NCBI GenBank assembly: GCA_030425645.1
Contig: JAUHZK010000004.1
Location: forward strand, 61,100 to 125,099
Direction of reading: 5' to 3'
DNA from: Gammaproteobacteria bacterium
GTDB taxonomy: Bacteria > Pseudomonadota > Gammaproteobacteria > JAPPPA01
Length of the DNA: 64,000 nucleotides
In this document: piece after piece, positions 14,010 to 60,004 of the stretch
Layout of the letters: every line of letters starts with the position of its first letter
Position numbering within the stretch: position 1 is the first letter of the stretch
Notes under the pieces: generated by a model
Database searches by the model: none
What the model saw: only the letters and a program-made list of their open reading frames with translations
Told to the model about the DNA's origin: nothing
Translations under genes and position numbers: made by a program

Positions 14010-14016
14010 TCACGCT

Positions 14017-14119
14017 CCGTTCGCCCTGAGCCTGAGCTTGCCGAAGGATCGAAGGGTGAACTAACCAAGCCAACAAAACATGCTAAACCCCAGGCTTCGA
14101 CCAGGCTCAGCCCTAACGG
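14017..14119. repeat. REP-like 103-bp hairpin element, copy 1
   Basis: Arms are ccgttcgccctgagcctg...cgaaggg and cttcgaccaggctcagccctaacgg (imperfect inverted repeat). Core is gtgaactaaccaagccaacaaaac. Confidence 0.75.
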
Positions 14120-14150
14120 TTATCGAGTCCTAAACATCGTAACTAACGTT

Positions 14151-14253
14151 CCGTTCGCCCTGAGCCTGTCGAAGGGTGAACCAACCAAGCCAACAAAACC
14201 CGAGAATCCTAGGCTTCGATTCTTCGGCAAGCTCAGAACTTCAGCCTGAACGG
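14151..14253. repeat. REP-like 103-bp hairpin element, copy 2 (tandem to copy 1)
   Basis: Same ends and core as copy 1. A 15-nt insert (agcttgccgaag...) has moved to the opposite arm. Confidence 0.75.
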
Positions 14254-18184: not shown

Positions 18185-18204
18185 GGTCCTTGTTGCTCTA
18201 AACC

Positions 18205-18316
18205 TTGGCTGGTTCACCCTTCGATCCTTCGACAAGCTCAGGATCAGGGCGAACGGAACGTTTGTGCCAAGAGTTGGCATTTTTATTCCGTTAGTCCTGA
18301 GCCTGTCGAAGGACGG
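18205..18316. repeat. REP-like element arms, same family as 14017-14253, abutting the GIY-YIG start and the acnD stop
   Basis: The reverse complement of 18185-18256 matches copy 1 (14017...) with only a few mismatches over ~55 nt, weaker beyond. A second arm, ccgttagtcctgagcctgtcgaaggacgg, lies at 18288-18316. Confidence 0.75.
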
Positions 18317-44222: not shown

Positions 44223-44230
44223 AAACTATC

Positions 44231-44305
44231 GGGGACAGACCCCTCCGTCATCGGCAGCGCTAGCCTTAATAGTTGGATAGCGCTGGAGGGGCGGGGTCTG
44301 TCCCC
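44231..44305. repeat. 75-bp hairpin element with GGGGACAGACCCC / GGGGTCTGTCCCC termini
   Basis: Perfect 13-bp terminal inverted repeats. The internal arms also pair (ctcc...agcgcta / tagcgct...ggag). Confidence 0.85.
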
Positions 44306-47255: not shown

Positions 47256-47277
47256 GTATTTCGTTGTTAGAAAGTTC

Positions 47278-47353
47278 GGGGACAGACCCCTTCGCTCTGG
47301 AGTTAATAAAGCCGTTTAAATTGGTAGCGCTTCTCGAAGCGGGGTCTGTCCCC
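47278..47353. repeat. 76-bp hairpin element with GGGGACAGACCCC termini (intercistronic)
   Basis: Perfect 13-bp terminal inverted repeats, located between the two permease genes. Confidence 0.85.
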
Positions 47354-47376
47354 TTTTCCTGCGGAGAGAGTAGCTA

Positions 47377-48317: not shown

Positions 48318-49958
48318 ATGTTAAAAGTCCAAAACCTCGCAGTCAATTTCAATACGCCAGATGGTGTGGTTAACGCCGTGCGCGGCGTGAGCTTTGATCT
48401 GGCGGAAGGTGAAACGCTAGCGGTTGTCGGCGAGTCCGGTTCTGGCAAAAGCCAAACCATGATGGCTTTGCTGGGTTTGTTGGCGGGCAATGGTGAGGTC
48501 AGCGGTTCGGCGCAGTTTGAAGGCCAAGAGCTGATTGGCGCGGATGATAAAACGCTGTTGAATGTGCGCGGTGACCGTATTGGGCTGATCTTCCAAGACC
48601 CGATGACCTCGCTGAATCCCTACTTGCCGATTGGCCTGCAAATGGCTGAGGTGCTGGAAGTGCATCGCGGCTTGTCGCGCAAAGCGGCTTTGGCCGAAAG
48701 CTTGGCGATGCTTAATGCCGTGCATATGCCGGATGCTGAGCGCCGACTAAAACAGTATCCGCATGAGTTCTCGGGCGGCCAGCGCCAGCGCGTGATGATT
48801 GCGATGGCCTTGTTGTGTAAACCTAAGTTACTGATTGCCGACGAGCCAACCACCGCCTTGGATGTAACTATTCAAGCGGAAATTCTAAAACTGCTTCAAG
48901 AAATTCAGCAGCAGTTTGGCACCAGCATTATTTTTATTACCCATGATTTGGCTGTGGCGTCGCAGCTATGCGACCGGGTGATGGTGATGCGCCACGGTGA
49001 GGTACTAGAGCAGGGTAATGCGACGCAGTTGTTTGAAAACCCGCAAGCGCCATACACAAAAGCCTTGCTGGATTGCTTGCCCAATATGCAAACCCAACAG
49101 TTGCGCCTAGCAACAGTCGAATCCGTCGAAAATGGGACAGACCCAAATGGGTCTGTCCCAGATCGGGTTGCGCCGGGTAATGTTTTGCTTAGCGTTTGCG
49201 ATTTGGCGGTCGACTACAAACTCGCCAGCGGCAAATCGTTTACCGCAGTGGAGGGCGTGAGTTTTGAACTGCGCCAAGGCGAAACCTTAGGCGTAGTGGG
49301 TGAGTCTGGCAGCGGTAAGTCATCAGCAGCGCGTGCGCTATTAGGTTTAAACCCCATCAGCCGCGGCGATGTCGAATGGCGCGGACAGTCTTTAAACGCT
49401 TTAAGTCAGGCCGACTGGCGTGCTTTGCGCCGCCACATGCAGGTGGTGTTTCAAGACCCCTTGGCATCGTTAAATCCGCGCCAAACCATTGGTGATTCCG
49501 TGGCCGAGCCGCTGACCGTGTTTGAACCGAGCTTGGACAGAAAACAGCGGCTAGATAAAGCTGCGTATTGGTTAGAAAAAGTCGGTCTATCGCGCGATAT
49601 GCTCAATCGCTATCCGCATGAATTTTCCGGCGGGCAATGTCAGCGGATTGGTATCGCGCGCGCCTTAATTTTAGAGCCGCCATTATTAATTTGCGACGAG
49701 GCAGTTTCCGCGCTCGACGTCTCCGTGCAGGCGCAGGTGCTTAACCTGCTGCAAGACCTACAGAGTGAATACGGCTTGGCGCTGCTGTTTATCGCGCATG
49801 ACTTGTCGGTGGTAAAACATATTAGCGATCGTGTGCTGGTGATGTCGCAAGGCCAAGTGGTAGAGCAGGGCGATGCAGAGCAGATTTATCAGGCCCCGCA
49901 ACACGCCTACACGCAATCTCTTATTAAAGCTGTGCCACAATTGCACTCTGAGACTTGA
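48318..49958 (+). CDS. Fused double-NBD ABC transporter ATPase (YejF/OppDF-like)
   Basis: Two complete sets of motifs: [13 protein letters not shown](R/C)QR and ADEPT/CDEAV. Track ORF trimmed to [11 protein letters not shown]. Confidence 0.9.
49134..49159. repeat. Bare 26-bp GGGACAGACCC-aaat-GGGTCTGTCCC palindrome inside the ATPase linker
   Basis: Same arm sequence as the 75-bp elements. It is read in frame as GTDPNGSVP between the two NBDs. Confidence 0.8.
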
Positions 49959-51589: not shown

Positions 51590-52168
51590 ATGAATATGAG
51601 CGTTAAGCAGTTTGCTGATGACTTAAAGTCCGAAGTGGTTAGATGTAAGGAGGAAGGGGCTGAGTCAATTAATTGTGACAGCCTAATTGGGTATCTTGGG
51701 GATGTGGTTGAGTCGACCAAAGAAGAGCCTACAGAAACGGAGCTAGCAGAATATCGAGCAAAGTGGCAGCTTCATATTGAGCAAACTAGAAGCTACAGTG
51801 AGTCACAGCTGGAAATGTTTAGGGCAGTAATAACCTCTGGACAGACTGCTATTCGGTCGTCATTTTTGATGAATGGTGGTGCTGCCGTGGCTCTTCTCGC
51901 TTTTATTGGTCATTTGGCAGCCAATGATTCGGCTCATGTGGGTGCTTTTGCTGATGCTTTAAGCCCTTTTGTTTGGGGAGTGTTGGTGGTCTCTGTGGTC
52001 TCCGGTTTTACTTATCTTAGTCAATGGTTCTACTACTCCGACTCGAAACTCTCACAGCTGGCAGGGTTGTTCCTGAATATATGCTCTATAGTTCTCGGGC
52101 TTGCGTCCTACGGGTTGTTTATTAGAGGCTTGGATAAGGCGCGATGCGCTTTCATGTTGTTTTCTTAG
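51590..52168 (+). CDS. Hypothetical protein (soluble helical N-half, three C-terminal TM helices)
   Basis: 192-aa ORF, AT-richer than its flanks, no family recognised. Its TAG stop lies in the first bases of the downstream repeat. Confidence 0.5.
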   Translation: MNMSVKQFADDLKSEVVRCKEEGAESINCDSLIGYLGDVVESTKEEPTETELAEYRAKWQLHIEQTRSYSESQLEMFRAVITSGQTAIRSSFLMNGGAAVALLAFIGHLAANDSAHVGAFADALSPFVWGVLVVSVVSGFTYLSQWFYYSDSKLSQLAGLFLNICSIVLGLASYGLFIRGLDKARCAFMLFS

Positions 52169-52408
52169 TGTTTGTTTCGGCCCTAGCTGCTTCTATCTGC
52201 TTGCGGTGCTTTCATCGCGTTGGCCGAGTGTACTTTTCTTTGCTTCGCCAAAGAAAAGTAACCAAAAGAAAGGCGATCCCACCATGCGGCCGCTATCGCG
52301 GTTCCCTGCGCTACTCGCCAAATCGAGCGCCCGCGGAACTCGCTAACGCTCAAACAGGCCGCAGGCTCAATCTCGATTTGGCTCCGTTGCTCGGCCGCAT
52401 AGAAGGGC
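52166..52408 (+). repeat. ~243-bp interspersed repeat, subtype 1
   Basis: About 90% identical from ggccgagtg onward to the reverse complement of 59756-59996. Contains the hairpin acttttctttg-N6-caaagaaaagt. Confidence 0.85.
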
Positions 52409-52734
52409 GCGTTTAGCCCGCTTCGTTATTCTGATTCGGTCTGATCGATACGTTGATTGTAGATGTCAGTATAAGAATGCCTAGCTCTGGATAAAAAACT
52501 AGATTAATCAGTGTCGCCACAAATATTAAAGCTGGTAGAAGAGGAAGCTTTAGATTGAAAGGTTTGGAGGTCATGGGGCTGCTATTTCCGGTTGTAGTTG
52601 AAGGCGGGATTCAATTTAGGTTCTATTTCTAATTGTGGCTACCACCTTAGGGTTGCAATTGCAGGGGTAATCTTCCTTCGGTTTTTAGAGCTCCGCTATT
52701 GTCAAATATTTGACAGTTGACGCCGGTGTGAGGT

Positions 52735-52997
52735 GGTGGCGTTGAGTGGGTTGTTTCTACTAGGCCCCTTTTGCGCAGCTGAGCATCGCAGTGGATTTTG
52801 GATTAAGGGAGCGGCTTGTTTGAGCGAAGCGAGTTCCCGCGACCGCCAAAATTCGCGAGAAGCGCAAGGAACCGCGAAGCGGCTGCGCAATTGGCGGTGG
52901 CGTTTTTGGTTACTTTTTTCGCCAAAGAAAAAAGTAACTCGGCCTTACCGACGAACTGCCCGAAAGCAGATAGAGCTCACTAGGGCCGAAACAACCA
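52735..52997 (-). repeat. ~260-bp interspersed repeat, subtype 2
   Basis: Its reverse complement aligns along its length with 59467-59706. It shares the outer ~40 bp (gtttcggccct.g...ctatctgctt.cgg) and the block cgcggaactcgct(a)acgctcaaaca with subtype 1. Confidence 0.85.
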
Positions 52998-53020
52998 CCA
53001 GCCAAAGCAACAATCGCAAG

Positions 53021-54472
53021 TTACGTCCCACAAAACGTTTGCATAACCCTTTCCTGCGGCTCCGGCGGCACCAACAAATCTAAATCCCCATCCGCCACTT
53101 GATACGGATCGGCCAAGGCCTCAGCGAGGCGATTAAACAACGCCCAATCATCTCGCTCAGAAGCCTCTTCCAAGGCTTTCTCCACTTGGTGATTACGCGC
53201 AATCAACACCGGGTTGGCTTGGCGCATGGTGGCGACATCGGCGTCACTAAGCTCTCGCCATTGCTTGAGCCATTCTGCGCCGACGGCTTGATCGCTAAAC
53301 AAGCTCAACAGCGGCGCTTCATCGCTACCCGCTGCCAATTCGGTGAGGCGATTAAAGAAAACGGTGAAGTCCGTTTGATCTTTAGCGAGGGTGGGGAAAA
53401 CTTGCTCCACAAACTGTTGCGCCTCTTCATCGTCGCGGCTGATGCCGAGTTTTTGCTTTAGGCCGTTAACAAAGTGGTCGCGGAATTGATCTTGAAATGG
53501 CTTGAGGGCGTTTTCGGCAAGGGTGACGGCTTTGTCGCTGTCGTCATCCAATAGCGGCAATAAGGTTTCCGCAAAACGGGCGAGGTTCCAGTAGGCAATG
53601 CTGCCTTGTTGGTTCCAAGCGTAGCGGCCTTGATGGTCGATGGAGCTAAAGGTTTTGCTGGGAATAAATTCATCTATAAAAGCGCAGGGGCCGAAGTCGA
53701 TGGTTTCGCCAACAACGGACATATTGTCGGTATTCATGACGCCGTGAATAAAACCCACCAGCATCCATTGTGGGATTAGCTTCGCTTGGCGGGCGGCTAC
53801 TGCTTCGATCAGCGCGGCGTAGGGGCTTTCGCTGTTGGCTGCCTCGGGGAAGTGGTGACTAATAACAAAATCGGCCAGCGCTTGTAGTTCATCACGCTCT
53901 AAATTGGCGGCAGCATATTGAAAAGAACCCACGCGGATATGGCTTTGGGCCGTGCGTACAACAATGCCGCCGGCTTGGGGCTGCTCACGTTGCACCATTT
54001 CGCCAGTGCCTATAACGGCAAGACTATTGGTGGTGGGGATACCGAGCCCGGCCATGGCTTCGGAAATTAAATATTCACGCAGTGAGCTGCTAAGGGTGGC
54101 CTTGCCGTCGCCGCGGCGTGAATAAGGCGTAGCGCCGGAGCCTTTTAGTTGTACGTCTAGATAGTCACCGTTAGCGGTTTGTAGTTGACCCAGCAGATGC
54201 GCACGACCGTCGCCGAGTAGTGGTGAGTAACCGCCAAACTGATGGCCGGCATAGGCCATGGCTAAGGGTTGGGTGCTGTAGTCGGCGTTGCCGCTAAAGA
54301 CGGCTACGGCTTCGGGGCTGTTAAACCAGTCGGTCTGTAAACCGAGTTGCTTAATTAGCCTATGGTTGAGTGTGAGCAGCTTGGGCGCGGGTGCTTTGCT
54401 TGGCGCGATGGCGCTGAACATTGCCTCGGGGAGGTCGAGGTAATGTTGTTTGGTGATGGGGTTTTGCGTCAT
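53021..54472 (-). CDS. selO: Protein adenylyltransferase SelO (YdiU)
   Basis: 483 aa. YAGHQFG...LGDGRA...KGSG.TPYSR...GVMNTDNMS motifs. Confidence 0.9.
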   Translation of the reverse strand: MTQNPITKQHYLDLPEAMFSAIAPSKAPAPKLLTLNHRLIKQLGLQTDWFNSPEAVAVFSGNADYSTQPLAMAYAGHQFGGYSPLLGDGRAHLLGQLQTANGDYLDVQLKGSGATPYSRRGDGKATLSSSLREYLISEAMAGLGIPTTNSLAVIGTGEMVQREQPQAGGIVVRTAQSHIRVGSFQYAAANLERDELQALADFVISHHFPEAANSESPYAALIEAVAARQAKLIPQWMLVGFIHGVMNTDNMSVVGETIDFGPCAFIDEFIPSKTFSSIDHQGRYAWNQQGSIAYWNLARFAETLLPLLDDDSDKAVTLAENALKPFQDQFRDHFVNGLKQKLGISRDDEEAQQFVEQVFPTLAKDQTDFTVFFNRLTELAAGSDEAPLLSLFSDQAVGAEWLKQWRELSDADVATMRQANPVLIARNHQVEKALEEASERDDWALFNRLAEALADPYQVADGDLDLLVPPEPQERVMQTFCGT

Positions 54473-54481
54473 TTAGGGAAA

Positions 54482-54555
54482 GGGGACAGACCCCGCTTAG
54501 AAAGTTTCTACGGCGGTTACTGGTCTACGCGGTTTAGACGGTGGGGTCTGTCCCC
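54482..54555. repeat. 74-bp hairpin element with GGGGACAGACCCC termini
   Basis: Perfect 13-bp terminal inverted repeats, between selO and ubiK. Confidence 0.85.
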
Positions 54556-54564
54556 GATAGTTGT

Positions 54565-55097: not shown

Positions 55098-55436
<339 letters not shown>

Positions 55437-55473: not shown

Positions 55474-56712
55474 ATGGAAAACACTATTTTCGAACTTCAG
55501 TACGCCTTAGACACCTTTTATTTCTTGGTGTGTGGCGCGCTGGTAATGTGGATGGCGGCTGGTTTCGCCATGTTGGAAGCCGGTCTTGTTCGTTCTAAGA
55601 ACACTACCGAAATCCTAACCAAGAACGTTGCGCTATTCGCAATCTCTTGCACCATGTACATGGTTGTGGGTTACTCGATCATGTATCCAGAGCTAGGCAG
55701 TGCATTGTTGTCAGGTATTACTGGTGACGGTGTCGCTGGTGCAGAAGAGGCTGCTACTTACGCCCCTTCGGCGGACTTTTTCTTCCAGGTAGTATTCGTA
55801 GCGACTGCTATGTCTATCGTATCTGGTGCAGTTGCTGAGCGTATGAAGCTTTGGGCTTTCCTAGCGTTTGCCGTAGTAATGACCGGCTTGATCTACCCAA
55901 TGGAAGGTTCTTGGACTTGGGGTGGCGAGAAAGTATTTGGCTTGTATGCGCTTGCTGATTACGGTTGGTCAGACTTCGCTGGCTCAGGCATCGTACACAT
56001 GGCCGGTGCCGCAGCTGCTCTAGCTGGCGTATTGGTTCTTGGCGCTCGTAAAGGCAAGTACGGCCCTAACGGTGAAGTTCGCGCTATCCCTGGTGCTAAC
56101 CTTCCGTTAGCTACCCTAGGTACTTTTATCCTATGGATGGGTTGGTTCGGCTTTAACGGCGGTTCTGTACTAGCGACTGCTTCTGTAGAAAACGCTAACG
56201 CTGTTGCGGTTGTATTTATGAACACTAACGCTGCCGCTGCTGGTGGCCTTATCGCTGCTCTATTGCTTGCTCGCGTATTGTTCGGCAAAGCTGACCTTAC
56301 TATGGCGCTGAACGGTGCTCTAGCGGGTCTAGTTGCGATTACTGCTGAGCCTTCTACTCCTACTCCGCTGCTAGCTACCCTATTCGGTGCTGCTGGTGGT
56401 GCTTTGGTTGTATTCAGCATCATCACGCTTGATAAGCTGAAAATTGATGACCCTGTAGGTGCTATCTCTGTTCACGGTGTTGTAGGTCTACTAGGTCTAT
56501 TACTAGTACCTCTAACCAACGACGGCTCTAGCTTCAGCGGCCAGCTAATTGGTGCGGCTACCATCTTTGCATGGGTATTTGGCGCTAGCTTGGTTGTTTG
56601 GTTCACTCTGAAAGCCATCATGGGCATTCGTGTAAGCGAAGAAGAAGAATACGAAGGTGTTGACCTTTCTGAGTGTGGCCAAGAGGCTTACCCAGAGTTC
56701 ACTAACAAGTAA
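55474..56712 (+). CDS. amtB: Ammonium transporter
   Basis: 412 aa, 11-TM Amt family. DFAGSGIVHM and ISVHGVVG motifs. Confidence 0.95.
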   Translation: MENTIFELQYALDTFYFLVCGALVMWMAAGFAMLEAGLVRSKNTTEILTKNVALFAISCTMYMVVGYSIMYPELGSALLSGITGDGVAGAEEAATYAPSADFFFQVVFVATAMSIVSGAVAERMKLWAFLAFAVVMTGLIYPMEGSWTWGGEKVFGLYALADYGWSDFAGSGIVHMAGAAAALAGVLVLGARKGKYGPNGEVRAIPGANLPLATLGTFILWMGWFGFNGGSVLATASVENANAVAVVFMNTNAAAAGGLIAALLLARVLFGKADLTMALNGALAGLVAITAEPSTPTPLLATLFGAAGGALVVFSIITLDKLKIDDPVGAISVHGVVGLLGLLLVPLTNDGSSFSGQLIGAATIFAWVFGASLVVWFTLKAIMGIRVSEEEEYEGVDLSECGQEAYPEFTNK

Positions 56713-56868: not shown

Positions 56869-57225
<357 letters not shown>

Positions 57226-59448: not shown

Positions 59449-59466
59449 CACTAGCGTTTGCATTTG

Positions 59467-59706
59467 CTAGTGTTTGTTTCGGCCCTGGCAGCTTCTATCT
59501 GCTTTCGGTAGGTGTGTTGGTGCGGCCGAGTTACTTTTTTCCTTGGCGAAAAAAGTAACCAAAAAAGCCACCGCCAACCGCGCAGCCGCTTCGGGGTACC
59601 TTGCGCTTCTCGCGGATTTTGGCGGTCGCGGAAACTCGCTAACGCTCAAACAAGCCGCTCCCTCAATCCAAAATCCCCTGCGATGCTCAGCTGCGCAAAA
59701 GGGACC
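59467..59706 (+). repeat. ~240-bp interspersed repeat, subtype 2
   Basis: Aligns with the reverse complement of 52763-52997. Starts ctagtgtttgtttcggccct, like the subtype 1 copy at 52166. Confidence 0.85.
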
Positions 59707-59755
59707 TTTAGGGAAAGACCTCACGCTACCAATGCAGCTGGTTAGCAGTACCCTT

Positions 59756-59996
59756 GCCCTTCTATGCGGTCGAGCAACGGAGTCAGATCGAGATTAAGCC
59801 TGCGGCCTGTTTGAGCGTAGCGAGTTCCGCAGGCGCTCGATTTGGCGAGTAGCGCAGGGAACCCCGTAGGGGCCGCATGGTGGGATCGCCTTTCTTTTGG
59901 TGACTTTTCTTTGGCGACGCAAAGAAAAGTCACTCGGCCCGCACTAACAAACTTACCGAAAGCGTACAAAACCTTCTAAAGGCCGAAAACGACACC
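59756..59996 (-). repeat. ~241-bp interspersed repeat, subtype 1
   Basis: Its reverse complement is about 90% identical to 52220-52408. The outer ~50 bp are more diverged. Confidence 0.85.
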
Positions 59997-60004
59997 GGCG
60001 ATGT

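Follow-up and report, generated by a model that had tools for sequence, protein, structure and literature searches.

Two gaps between convergent genes in a 64,000-nt stretch of DNA from Gammaproteobacteria bacterium (GTDB lineage JAPPPA01; GenBank assembly GCA_030425645.1, contig JAUHZK010000004.1, positions 61,100 to 125,099), here called the window, are filled by related inverted repeats. The question that they raise is what the repeated entity is: a first-pass annotation, made from the sequence alone, had described each gap as a composite element of 0.5–0.8 kb with ~40-bp terminal inverted repeats, possibly a carrier for an insert. Our analysis shows that the recurring entity is the single unit and not the composite. 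This ~250-nt unit is present in the window in four copies of two subtypes (s1 and s2), arranged in two inverted pairs, and stands alone in almost every Desulfobacterales-type locus, in many loci of Ralstonia and in one contig (L005) of a gammaproteobacterial metagenome-assembled genome (MAG). The two loci are composed as follows, the strand given for each unit being the one that folds better.

52161..52410, minus strand: unit A (s1); minus -82.7 against plus -70.4 kcal/mol, for the core matched by the hidden Markov model
52411..52737, no strand: spacer of locus 1, unique, AT-richer and outside the repeat; 327 bp that match only themselves
52738..53010, plus strand: unit B (s2), inverted; from sequence comparison and fold
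59458..59733, minus strand: unit C (s2); from sequence comparison and fold
59734..59754, no strand: centre of locus 2, between the inner tails of C and D; from sequence comparison
59755..60000, plus strand: unit D (s1), inverted; from sequence comparison and fold

The s1 copies A and D are 93.6% identical over 187 nt and the s2 copies B and C 89% identical over 238 nt, with 72–77% identity between s1 and s2. BLAST E-values among the four units (1e-16 to 1e-85) are far beyond chance, which, with the alignment, confirms the four copies and two subtypes first described. The outer block, the small hairpin and the block cgcggaactcgct(a)acgctcaaaca.gccgc are indeed common to all four units (alignment A1), and no fifth copy was found by nhmmer across the 64-kb window. 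Subtype s2 reaches about 25 nt further inward (tail GGGGCCTAGTAGAAACAACCCAC) than the limit originally given to it. A coding repeat was ruled out, as A and D, and likewise B and C, differ by 1-nt indels that break the frame.

Locus 1 fills the gap between hemF plus a 192-aa membrane-like open reading frame (ORF) on one side and SelO on the other, and locus 2 that between the genes for a DUF4124 protein and spermidine synthase. The units start 0–10 nt from the stop codons of the adjoining genes, and the terminal motif of unit A overlaps the TAG stop codon of the ORF at 51590-52168. Each locus contains one s1 and one s2 unit, inverted and between convergent genes, as had been reported; locus 2 is locus 1 reverse-complemented (arrangement s1-centre-s2, the latter as its reverse complement) minus the ~300 bp of unique spacer, and what had been taken for two separate composites is one arrangement in opposite orientations. 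The long hairpins of C and D are separated by about 48 nt. At neither window pair did we find direct repeats at the ends (target-site duplication) or a transposase, and no Rfam family reached its gathering score on the window, in agreement with the annotation; a scan of 52100-53050 at E<=10 gave only sub-threshold microRNA (miRNA)-hairpin noise, and ARAGORN found no tRNA or tmRNA in the window.

The spacer of locus 1 contains a perfect 17-bp palindrome (TTGTCAAATATTTGACA) at 52699-52715, followed by a second TTGAC, which could be a regulator binding site. A minus-strand promoter-like site at 52483-52456 is directed at unit A, but sites of this kind are no more numerous than expected by chance, and a 53-aa hydrophobic minus-strand ORF at 52413-52574 (MTSKPFNLKLPLLPALIFVATLINLVFYPELG...), with neither a Shine-Dalgarno sequence nor a Pfam match, is probably not a gene.

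Recurrence of the s1/s2 pairs, which make up 4 of the 4 complete loci of the window lineage (two in the window, one each in MAG contigs L001 and L002), and the fact that their outer ends are mutual inverted copies would speak for a composite miniature inverted-repeat transposable element (MITE) that moves as a whole and is able to carry an insert. Nevertheless, the units are solitary in most related loci, the insert is unique (the 327-bp spacer is absent from locus 2, L001 and L002), the junction of s1 with s2 differs from locus to locus, target duplications are lacking, and in Pseudoalteromonas the paired units stand in opposite relative orientation to those of the window. This explanation is already largely refuted, and we regard it as highly improbable. 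In our reading, a pair results from two units having come together and is no single transposon: the ~40-bp "terminal inverted repeats" are not transposon ends, but the same end of two inverted units. Of the MITE-like character proposed in the annotation, what stands is that the element is non-coding, non-autonomous, strongly structured, unnamed and located at gene 3' ends; what falls is the composite as the basic element. Likewise, the statement that copies are never solitary holds inside the window (nhmmer, four copies) and for the complete loci of its lineage, but not for the wider family, which is mostly solitary, a situation that the annotation itself had named as refuting its proposal. 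In Ralstonia, the partners of a pair usually come from different clusters (within-pair identity with a median of 0.67 and a maximum of 0.73, against a median of 0.70 for random unit pairs; p about 0.04). Long perfect palindromes are unstable in bacteria, and for this reason pairs are probably tolerated only when diverged.

What the copies have in common is above all a fold. A unit is made of a long imperfect hairpin, a purine/pyrimidine-rich linker (U-rich on the folding strand) and a small A/U hairpin, to which the window lineage adds a third hairpin, CGGCC...GGCCG, and a short terminal motif.

52161..52229, minus strand: unit A, third hairpin CGGCC...GGCCG (52178-52226) and terminal motif, from the fold
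52230-52262, minus strand: unit A, small A/U hairpin, from the fold
52263-52275, minus strand: unit A, U-rich linker UUUCUUUU, mirror image of the hairpin arm UUUUCUUU
52276..52409, minus strand: unit A, long hairpin; the apical loop (52335-52360) reads GGCCUGUUUGAGCGUUAGCGAGUUCC on the minus strand
52738-52762, plus strand: unit B, inner tail
52763-52898, plus strand: unit B, long hairpin, loop 52813-52838
52899-52908, plus strand: unit B, linker
52909-52938, plus strand: unit B, small hairpin
52940-52988, plus strand: unit B, third hairpin, followed by the terminal motif AACAACCACCAGCC
59480-59528, minus strand: unit C, third hairpin
59530-59559, minus strand: unit C, small hairpin
59560-59569, minus strand: unit C, linker
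59570-59706, minus strand: unit C, long hairpin, loop 59630-59656, with a tail to about 59733
59755-59886, plus strand: unit D, long hairpin, loop 59804-59828
59887-59899, plus strand: unit D, linker
59900-59933, plus strand: unit D, small hairpin
59935-59985, plus strand: unit D, third hairpin, followed by the terminal motif

At full length, unit A has a predicted folding energy of -98.6 kcal/mol (z-score -2.8, minus strand) and unit B one of -111.4 kcal/mol (z-score -4.1). The stems diverge greatly between copies, yet remain complementary. Double compensatory changes were observed in 23 of the 46 predicted pairs among 51 Desulfobacterales-type units, and in 10 gammaproteobacterial units (the four of the window included) 97.6% of the cells are paired, against ~44% with slid partners, and 25 of 60 pairs are changed on both sides, values that were reached in none of 500 shuffles. 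The apical loop has the consensus CUGU(C/U)UGA-GCG-N-AGC-GAGUU, with a variable N; in the window the apex is one loop, GGCCUGUUUGAGCG(N)AGCGAGUUCC. GAGCG-N-AGCGAG was kept in 23 of 24 neighbouring units that had not been chosen by the search pattern, a count free of fishing bias. The loop sequence GCGNAGC is the GNA-type mini-hairpin motif known from unusually stable DNA hairpins. A GTAG motif is present in s1 only, being conserved neither in s2 nor in the other lineages, and the terminal complementarity of a single unit is weak (in s2, GGTGGTTGTTTC / GAAACAACCCAC).

The two strands of the unit are not equivalent. Read with the small hairpin first, mismatches are mostly A·C, which on the opposite strand become G·U; on this folding strand, a hand tally gave about 50 G·U cells against about 4 A·C cells. 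The same strand is the more stable one in 45/46 and 60/72 units, and in the window it is favoured by 9–15 kcal/mol through G·U/G·T pairs. Since one strand folds better through G·U pairs, the target of selection is a single-stranded nucleic acid of that one polarity. Both window pairs have their favoured strands pointing away from the centre (A and C minus, B and D plus) and thus antisense to the adjacent genes, and a transcript or single DNA strand spanning a whole pair is predicted to form a ~250-bp imperfect duplex (-271 kcal/mol, z-score -13.5).

Units occur across Gamma-, Beta- (Ralstonia) and Desulfobacterales-type lineages. An exact-pattern database scan with the most conserved block of the unit retrieved five contigs of the MAG Gammaproteobacteria bacterium SB9156_S5_bin_6, one Desulfobacterales MAG and, among the matches listed, more than 120 metagenome stretches, and profile mapping by nhmmer gave 208 matches. 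In the Desulfobacterales-type group, units are almost always solitary and, where several lie on one contig, nearly always in the same orientation; the group that holds the window units has many inverted pairs, with 31–341 bp between the units, besides solitary ones. In SB9156_S5_bin_6, the pairs of L001 and L002 are accompanied by a solitary s1-like unit (L005) and by two units cut by contig ends. Ralstonia has the high-GC members of this group, solitary or paired, and 134 Ralstonia megaplasmid records match in 2–13 places each, all without annotation. The small hairpin and linker are present in Pasteurella multocida, as a pair between a DUF484 gene and dapF, and also in Aeromonas caviae and Pseudoalteromonas. 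Escherichia coli genomes gave no match to the units, and a phage or viral origin was rejected, with 0 matches in viral contigs. Neither Rfam 15 nor a limited search of the literature gave a prior description of the family; in the latter, sequence k-mers matched only unrelated primers, and a MITE review and surveys of stem-loop families and of repetitive extragenic palindromic (REP) sequences and their REP-associated tyrosine transposases (RAYT) had no mention of these organisms or elements; an earlier description may nevertheless exist. The only reported P. multocida repeat family, Pam-1, is based on DNA uptake sequences.

Gene calls with a self-trained codon model placed pairs in convergent or tandem intergenic regions and none in divergent ones, and the 46 single units in convergent (15), tandem (13 sense and 14 antisense) and divergent (4) regions, with no sense/antisense bias relative to the upstream gene in tandem contexts. 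The distance to stop codons is 0–30 nt in four of the five MAG contigs and ~120 nt in L005. The 148 genes nearest to units are ordinary metabolic, transport and housekeeping genes, and no transposase, Y1_Tnp or RAYT is found among their 25 commonest Pfam families. Strains differ in the units that they have gained or lost. Within the Ralstonia solanacearum complex, the glgB-glgX intercistronic site holds a full pair in UW386, only a 75-bp palindrome built from the two outer modules in FJAT1452 and PSI07, and an internally deleted form in CFBP8697; at an intercistronic site of an ABC transporter, R. wenshanensis and a metagenome contig (L016) have a unit that R. solanacearum strains lack. The exact empty site or target could not be defined in Ralstonia, since the intergenic regions are too diverged for the junction to be placed, and a GGTGGTG-like word at both ends of some solitary copies (L016, L115) is inconsistent. 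Density can be high (4 pairs within 12 kb in L061), some copies are truncated or have nested extra hairpin modules, and some Desulfobacterales-type copies are enclosed by further layers of inverted repeats, a mosaic behaviour that resembles that of bacterial interspersed mosaic elements (BIMEs).

Other details of build were seen in individual loci. Extra conserved modules lie inside the small hairpin or one arm of the long hairpin (L017 5500-5890, L097 920-1100 on the minus strand, L031, L096, L113 and L125), such as one of ~165 nt bounded by AAACCGAATGATGAAGC / GCTTCATCATCCGGTTT. Such modules of Desulfobacterales-type units are small elements that became nested, or else structural domains that a unit may lack. 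Upstream of the glgB-glgX pair, the outer module TTGGTGGTGCATCCC..TTTCA-TCCCCTGCCGGGGC is tandemly triplicated (L130 1110-1240, Ralstonia pseudosolanacearum UW386 megaplasmid), and a similar duplication occurs in MAG contig L006 (3836-3895). Spacers of Ralstonia-type pairs (L009, L032, L092, L123, L061) often hold short tandem repeats, (GTGCGA)n, (CTTGCC)n or (CAATCACG)n, and those of L035, L121 and L061 a canonical-looking bidirectional terminator hairpin (AAGGCCAACC...GGTTGGCCTT).

A relationship to a described RNA motif was detected in two of the related genomes. TwoAYGGAY (RF01731), rated "probably RNA, not cis-regulatory" (Weinberg 2010, PMC2864571) and proposed to bind CsrA (PMC4333381), has a full-length match of 56.7 bits (gathering score 43) in Pseudoalteromonas sp. 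NC201 (L136 300-463) and a core match of 41.5 bits in Aeromonas, both on the folding strand that had been predicted beforehand from the G·U asymmetry. The E-value Rfam scans also covered 15 related loci and gave, beyond TwoAYGGAY, only sub-threshold miRNA-hairpin noise. Directly 3' of the Pseudoalteromonas match lies GGGAGUGCC-UUUUCUUUUG-CUACCUUUUCUUUGGGCAAGCAAAGAAAAGAUAG, a flank with which the window sequence GGGAUCGCC-UUUCUUUUG-GUUACUUUUCUUUGGCGAAGCAAAGAAAAGUAC aligns over the linker and the small A/U hairpin (alignment A8; ~80% identity over ~55 nt, estimated by eye). The Aeromonas match, too, continues into this linker and small A/U hairpin. An outer stem followed by a U-rich 3' end, as in the last positions of RF01731 (...GuAguuu), is matched by GGGA(U/G)(C/U)GCC-UUUCUUUUG in the window and by L136. 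Judged by this alignment, the U-tract and small-hairpin module is homologous to the sequence just 3' of TwoAYGGAY RNA, so that basal stem and 3' module are common to the window units and the gammaproteobacterial TwoAYGGAY loci. The two have in common a long outer stem ending in ...GGGAG/UGCC before a U-rich tract, and inverted pairs also occur (L136), with the difference that the long hairpins are the inner ones in the window pairs and the small hairpins in L136. The window units also differ in the apex and do not score with the model: RF01731 gave no match in the window at the gathering threshold (43 bits) and none at E<=10 on 52100-53050, with L136 as positive control (56.7 bits), and the window units have neither two adjacent AYGGAY-loop hairpins in a multistem junction nor an AYGGAY at the apex. 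In Aeromonas caviae (L128 1290-1370), a 25-codon ORF with a good Shine-Dalgarno sequence (GAGAGG-N7-ATG) enters the 5' base of the TwoAYGGAY-like hairpin, which may be due to chance.

The shared module has a further regularity. The linker is the mirror image of the purine arm of the small hairpin, being neither its complement nor a direct copy (the U-rich UUUCUUUU mirrors the adjacent pyrimidine arm UUUUCUUU / AAAGAAAA), and the two covary, with several states seen (AAAGAAAA -> AAAAGAAA, GAAGAAAA -> AAAAGAAG, GAAAAAAG -> AAAAAAG). In a table of arm versus linker, 37 of 48 Desulfobacterales-type units lie on the diagonal, and P. multocida holds both reciprocal forms, (3,4) and (4,3). Mirror symmetry is required by a pyrimidine-motif triple helix (U·A-U / C+·G-C). 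A speculative and rather unlikely possibility is, then, that the units and gammaproteobacterial TwoAYGGAY RNAs form one modular class of structured single-stranded elements, with a constant 3' module, exchangeable apical heads (two AYGGAY loops or a GCGNAGC mini-hairpin loop) and a linker/arm mirror symmetry as for a triple helix. If true, the symmetric linker and arm would be a bacterial triple-helix cap, like the ENE (element for nuclear expression), on a widely dispersed element. The covariation is in keeping with a triple helix, but a simple intramolecular geometry is doubtful, the linker being joined to the base of the hairpin by one nucleotide and the matching purines lying 5 bp up the stem.

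Among known repeats, the units are most readily compared with REP, BIME and REPIN (REP doublet forming a hairpin) systems. As in these, the units are interspersed palindromic elements in intergenic or intercistronic positions at gene 3' ends, mosaic or nested in build, without target duplication, at which contigs break, and their recognised form is likely a single-strand fold; the two inverted alternating subtypes recall the Y and Z of BIMEs (s1 and s2 here, twice in the window, and in L001 and L002). In contrast, the unit has ~250 nt instead of 20–40 nt, the conserved GTAG/CGTC head was not found, no RAYT is among the commonest Pfam families beside unit copies, it is the loop and linker rather than the stem that are conserved, and one family crosses phyla. 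MITEs (Correia/NEMIS, ERIC, YPAL) are likewise small, non-coding, multi-copy, strain-polymorphic long hairpins that can be co-transcribed and become RNase III substrates, but the units have no target-site duplication, no identified parent insertion sequence (IS) and, taken singly, only weak terminal complementarity, and the compensatory covariation among 70%-identical copies far exceeds what transposase-bound ends would lead one to expect.

The explanation that we favour, with moderate confidence, is that of a non-autonomous, structure-dependent interspersed repeat behaving like a BIME, REPIN or MITE, with the fold as what a mobilising or processing factor recognises and with BIME-like effects on transcripts. 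Each composite would be a back-to-back pair of diverged copies (s1 and s2) of a ~250-nt non-coding repeat, whose fold would be kept as the form, single-stranded DNA or RNA, recognised by a factor acting in trans to copy or mobilise the unit, in the way of RAYT with REP/REPIN; pairs would be made of different subtypes because near-identical inverted copies would give an unstable long palindrome; and the inserted units would act like BIMEs: 3' or intercistronic transcripts would gain highly stable structures, and RNA read through a whole pair would fold into the ~250-bp imperfect duplex. Several points weigh against this proposal. The unit is 6–8 times larger than REPs, and mobility is deduced only from dispersal and presence/absence polymorphism: we found neither a mobilising enzyme or parent IS nor a target-site duplication or clean empty site. 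Orientation relative to replication was biased (41:14) when judged by total GC skew, but not (26:30) by GC3 skew. The heterotypic-pair rule is only weakly beyond chance in Ralstonia (the p of about 0.04 given above), and in the window lineage it rests on 4 pairs, possibly of shared ancestry. Finally, the loop and linker may be conserved across phyla for the sake of an RNA function in the cell and not as a mobility signal.

Alternatively, the units may encode, or form domains of, a structured RNA that is functional and akin to TwoAYGGAY. This could be a small RNA that binds protein like a sponge, with the apical loop as binding site and the 3' U-tract/hairpin module stabilising the 3' end, and the multiplicity of units would then reflect gene-family amplification. 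The TwoAYGGAY match directly upstream of the shared 3' module in Pseudoalteromonas, the core match in Aeromonas, both on the predicted strand, the strong covariation, loops conserved independently of the fishing pattern, and the published rating and CsrA proposal (PMC2864571; PMC4333381) all argue for such an RNA. However, the promoter signal is no higher than chance and two divergent promoters would not fit into the 48-nt centre of locus 2; orientation to the flanking genes is random in tandem contexts; high density, strain polymorphism and truncated or nested copies are typical of repeats and not of genes; and the window loop has no GGA (CsrA-type) motif, so that we consider an RNA gene family possible but unlikely. 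A further possibility is that the pairs act in cis and are selected where they stand, either as barriers to transcription from both sides or as sites of RNase III processing, shielding convergent genes from read-through and setting mRNA 3' ends. In fact, units abut stop codons, convergent regions are enriched and divergent ones depleted, a U-rich tract follows the long hairpin on the better-folding strand, a whole-pair transcript forms the imperfect duplex, and units lie inside operons (glgB-glgX, ABC transporter), as REP/BIME elements do. Against this, intrinsic terminators were no more frequent than in shuffles (3 sites, against 2.2±1.6 and 1.3±1.3 expected, with 0 at the expected place), and the U-tract lies 5–6 nt away from the stem; the consensus scan thus lends no support to the bidirectional terminator suggested in the annotation. 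Besides, the better-folding strand is antisense to the adjacent window gene, and spread across phyla with gain and loss at strain level suggests that spread came first and function second; we consider selection in place improbable.

The window contains further repeats. A second small family, with the core (A)TCGGGGACAGACCCC, has 6 matches against 0.01 expected (44228-44243, 47275-47290, 47341-47356, 49148-49163, 54479-54494 and 54543-54558), of which 47275/47341 and 54479/54543, the latter just upstream of SelO, are inverted doublets ~65 bp apart that look REP/REPIN-like. A third family of ~60 nt, CGTTCGCCCTGAGCCTG..TCGAAGGGTGAAC(T/C)AACCAAGCCAACAAAAC, with 91–97% identity, has two direct copies 120 bp apart (14012-14079 and 14140-14199) and an inverted one 4 kb away (18204-18261). 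Two paralogous 112-aa ORFs (55098-55436 and 56887-57225; 75% DNA identity) on either side of an ammonium transporter gene (55474-56712) are probably P-II/GlnK-type genes that arose by duplication.

The units described here define an unannotated family of large, strongly structured intergenic repeats, present in marine and sediment metagenomes and in cultured, well-studied bacteria (the Ralstonia solanacearum complex, Pasteurella multocida, Aeromonas and Pseudoalteromonas). Through them TwoAYGGAY, an orphan motif for 16 years, gains a genomic context: it shares a 3' module with them, occurs in inverted pairs and behaves like a repeat. Because units interrupt assemblies, give rise to spurious ORFs and adjoin stop codons (0–10 nt), they affect annotation and models of 3'-end regulation. 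Ralstonia, with its strain polymorphism inside operons, is a tractable system for the spread of the units and for their effects on mRNA.

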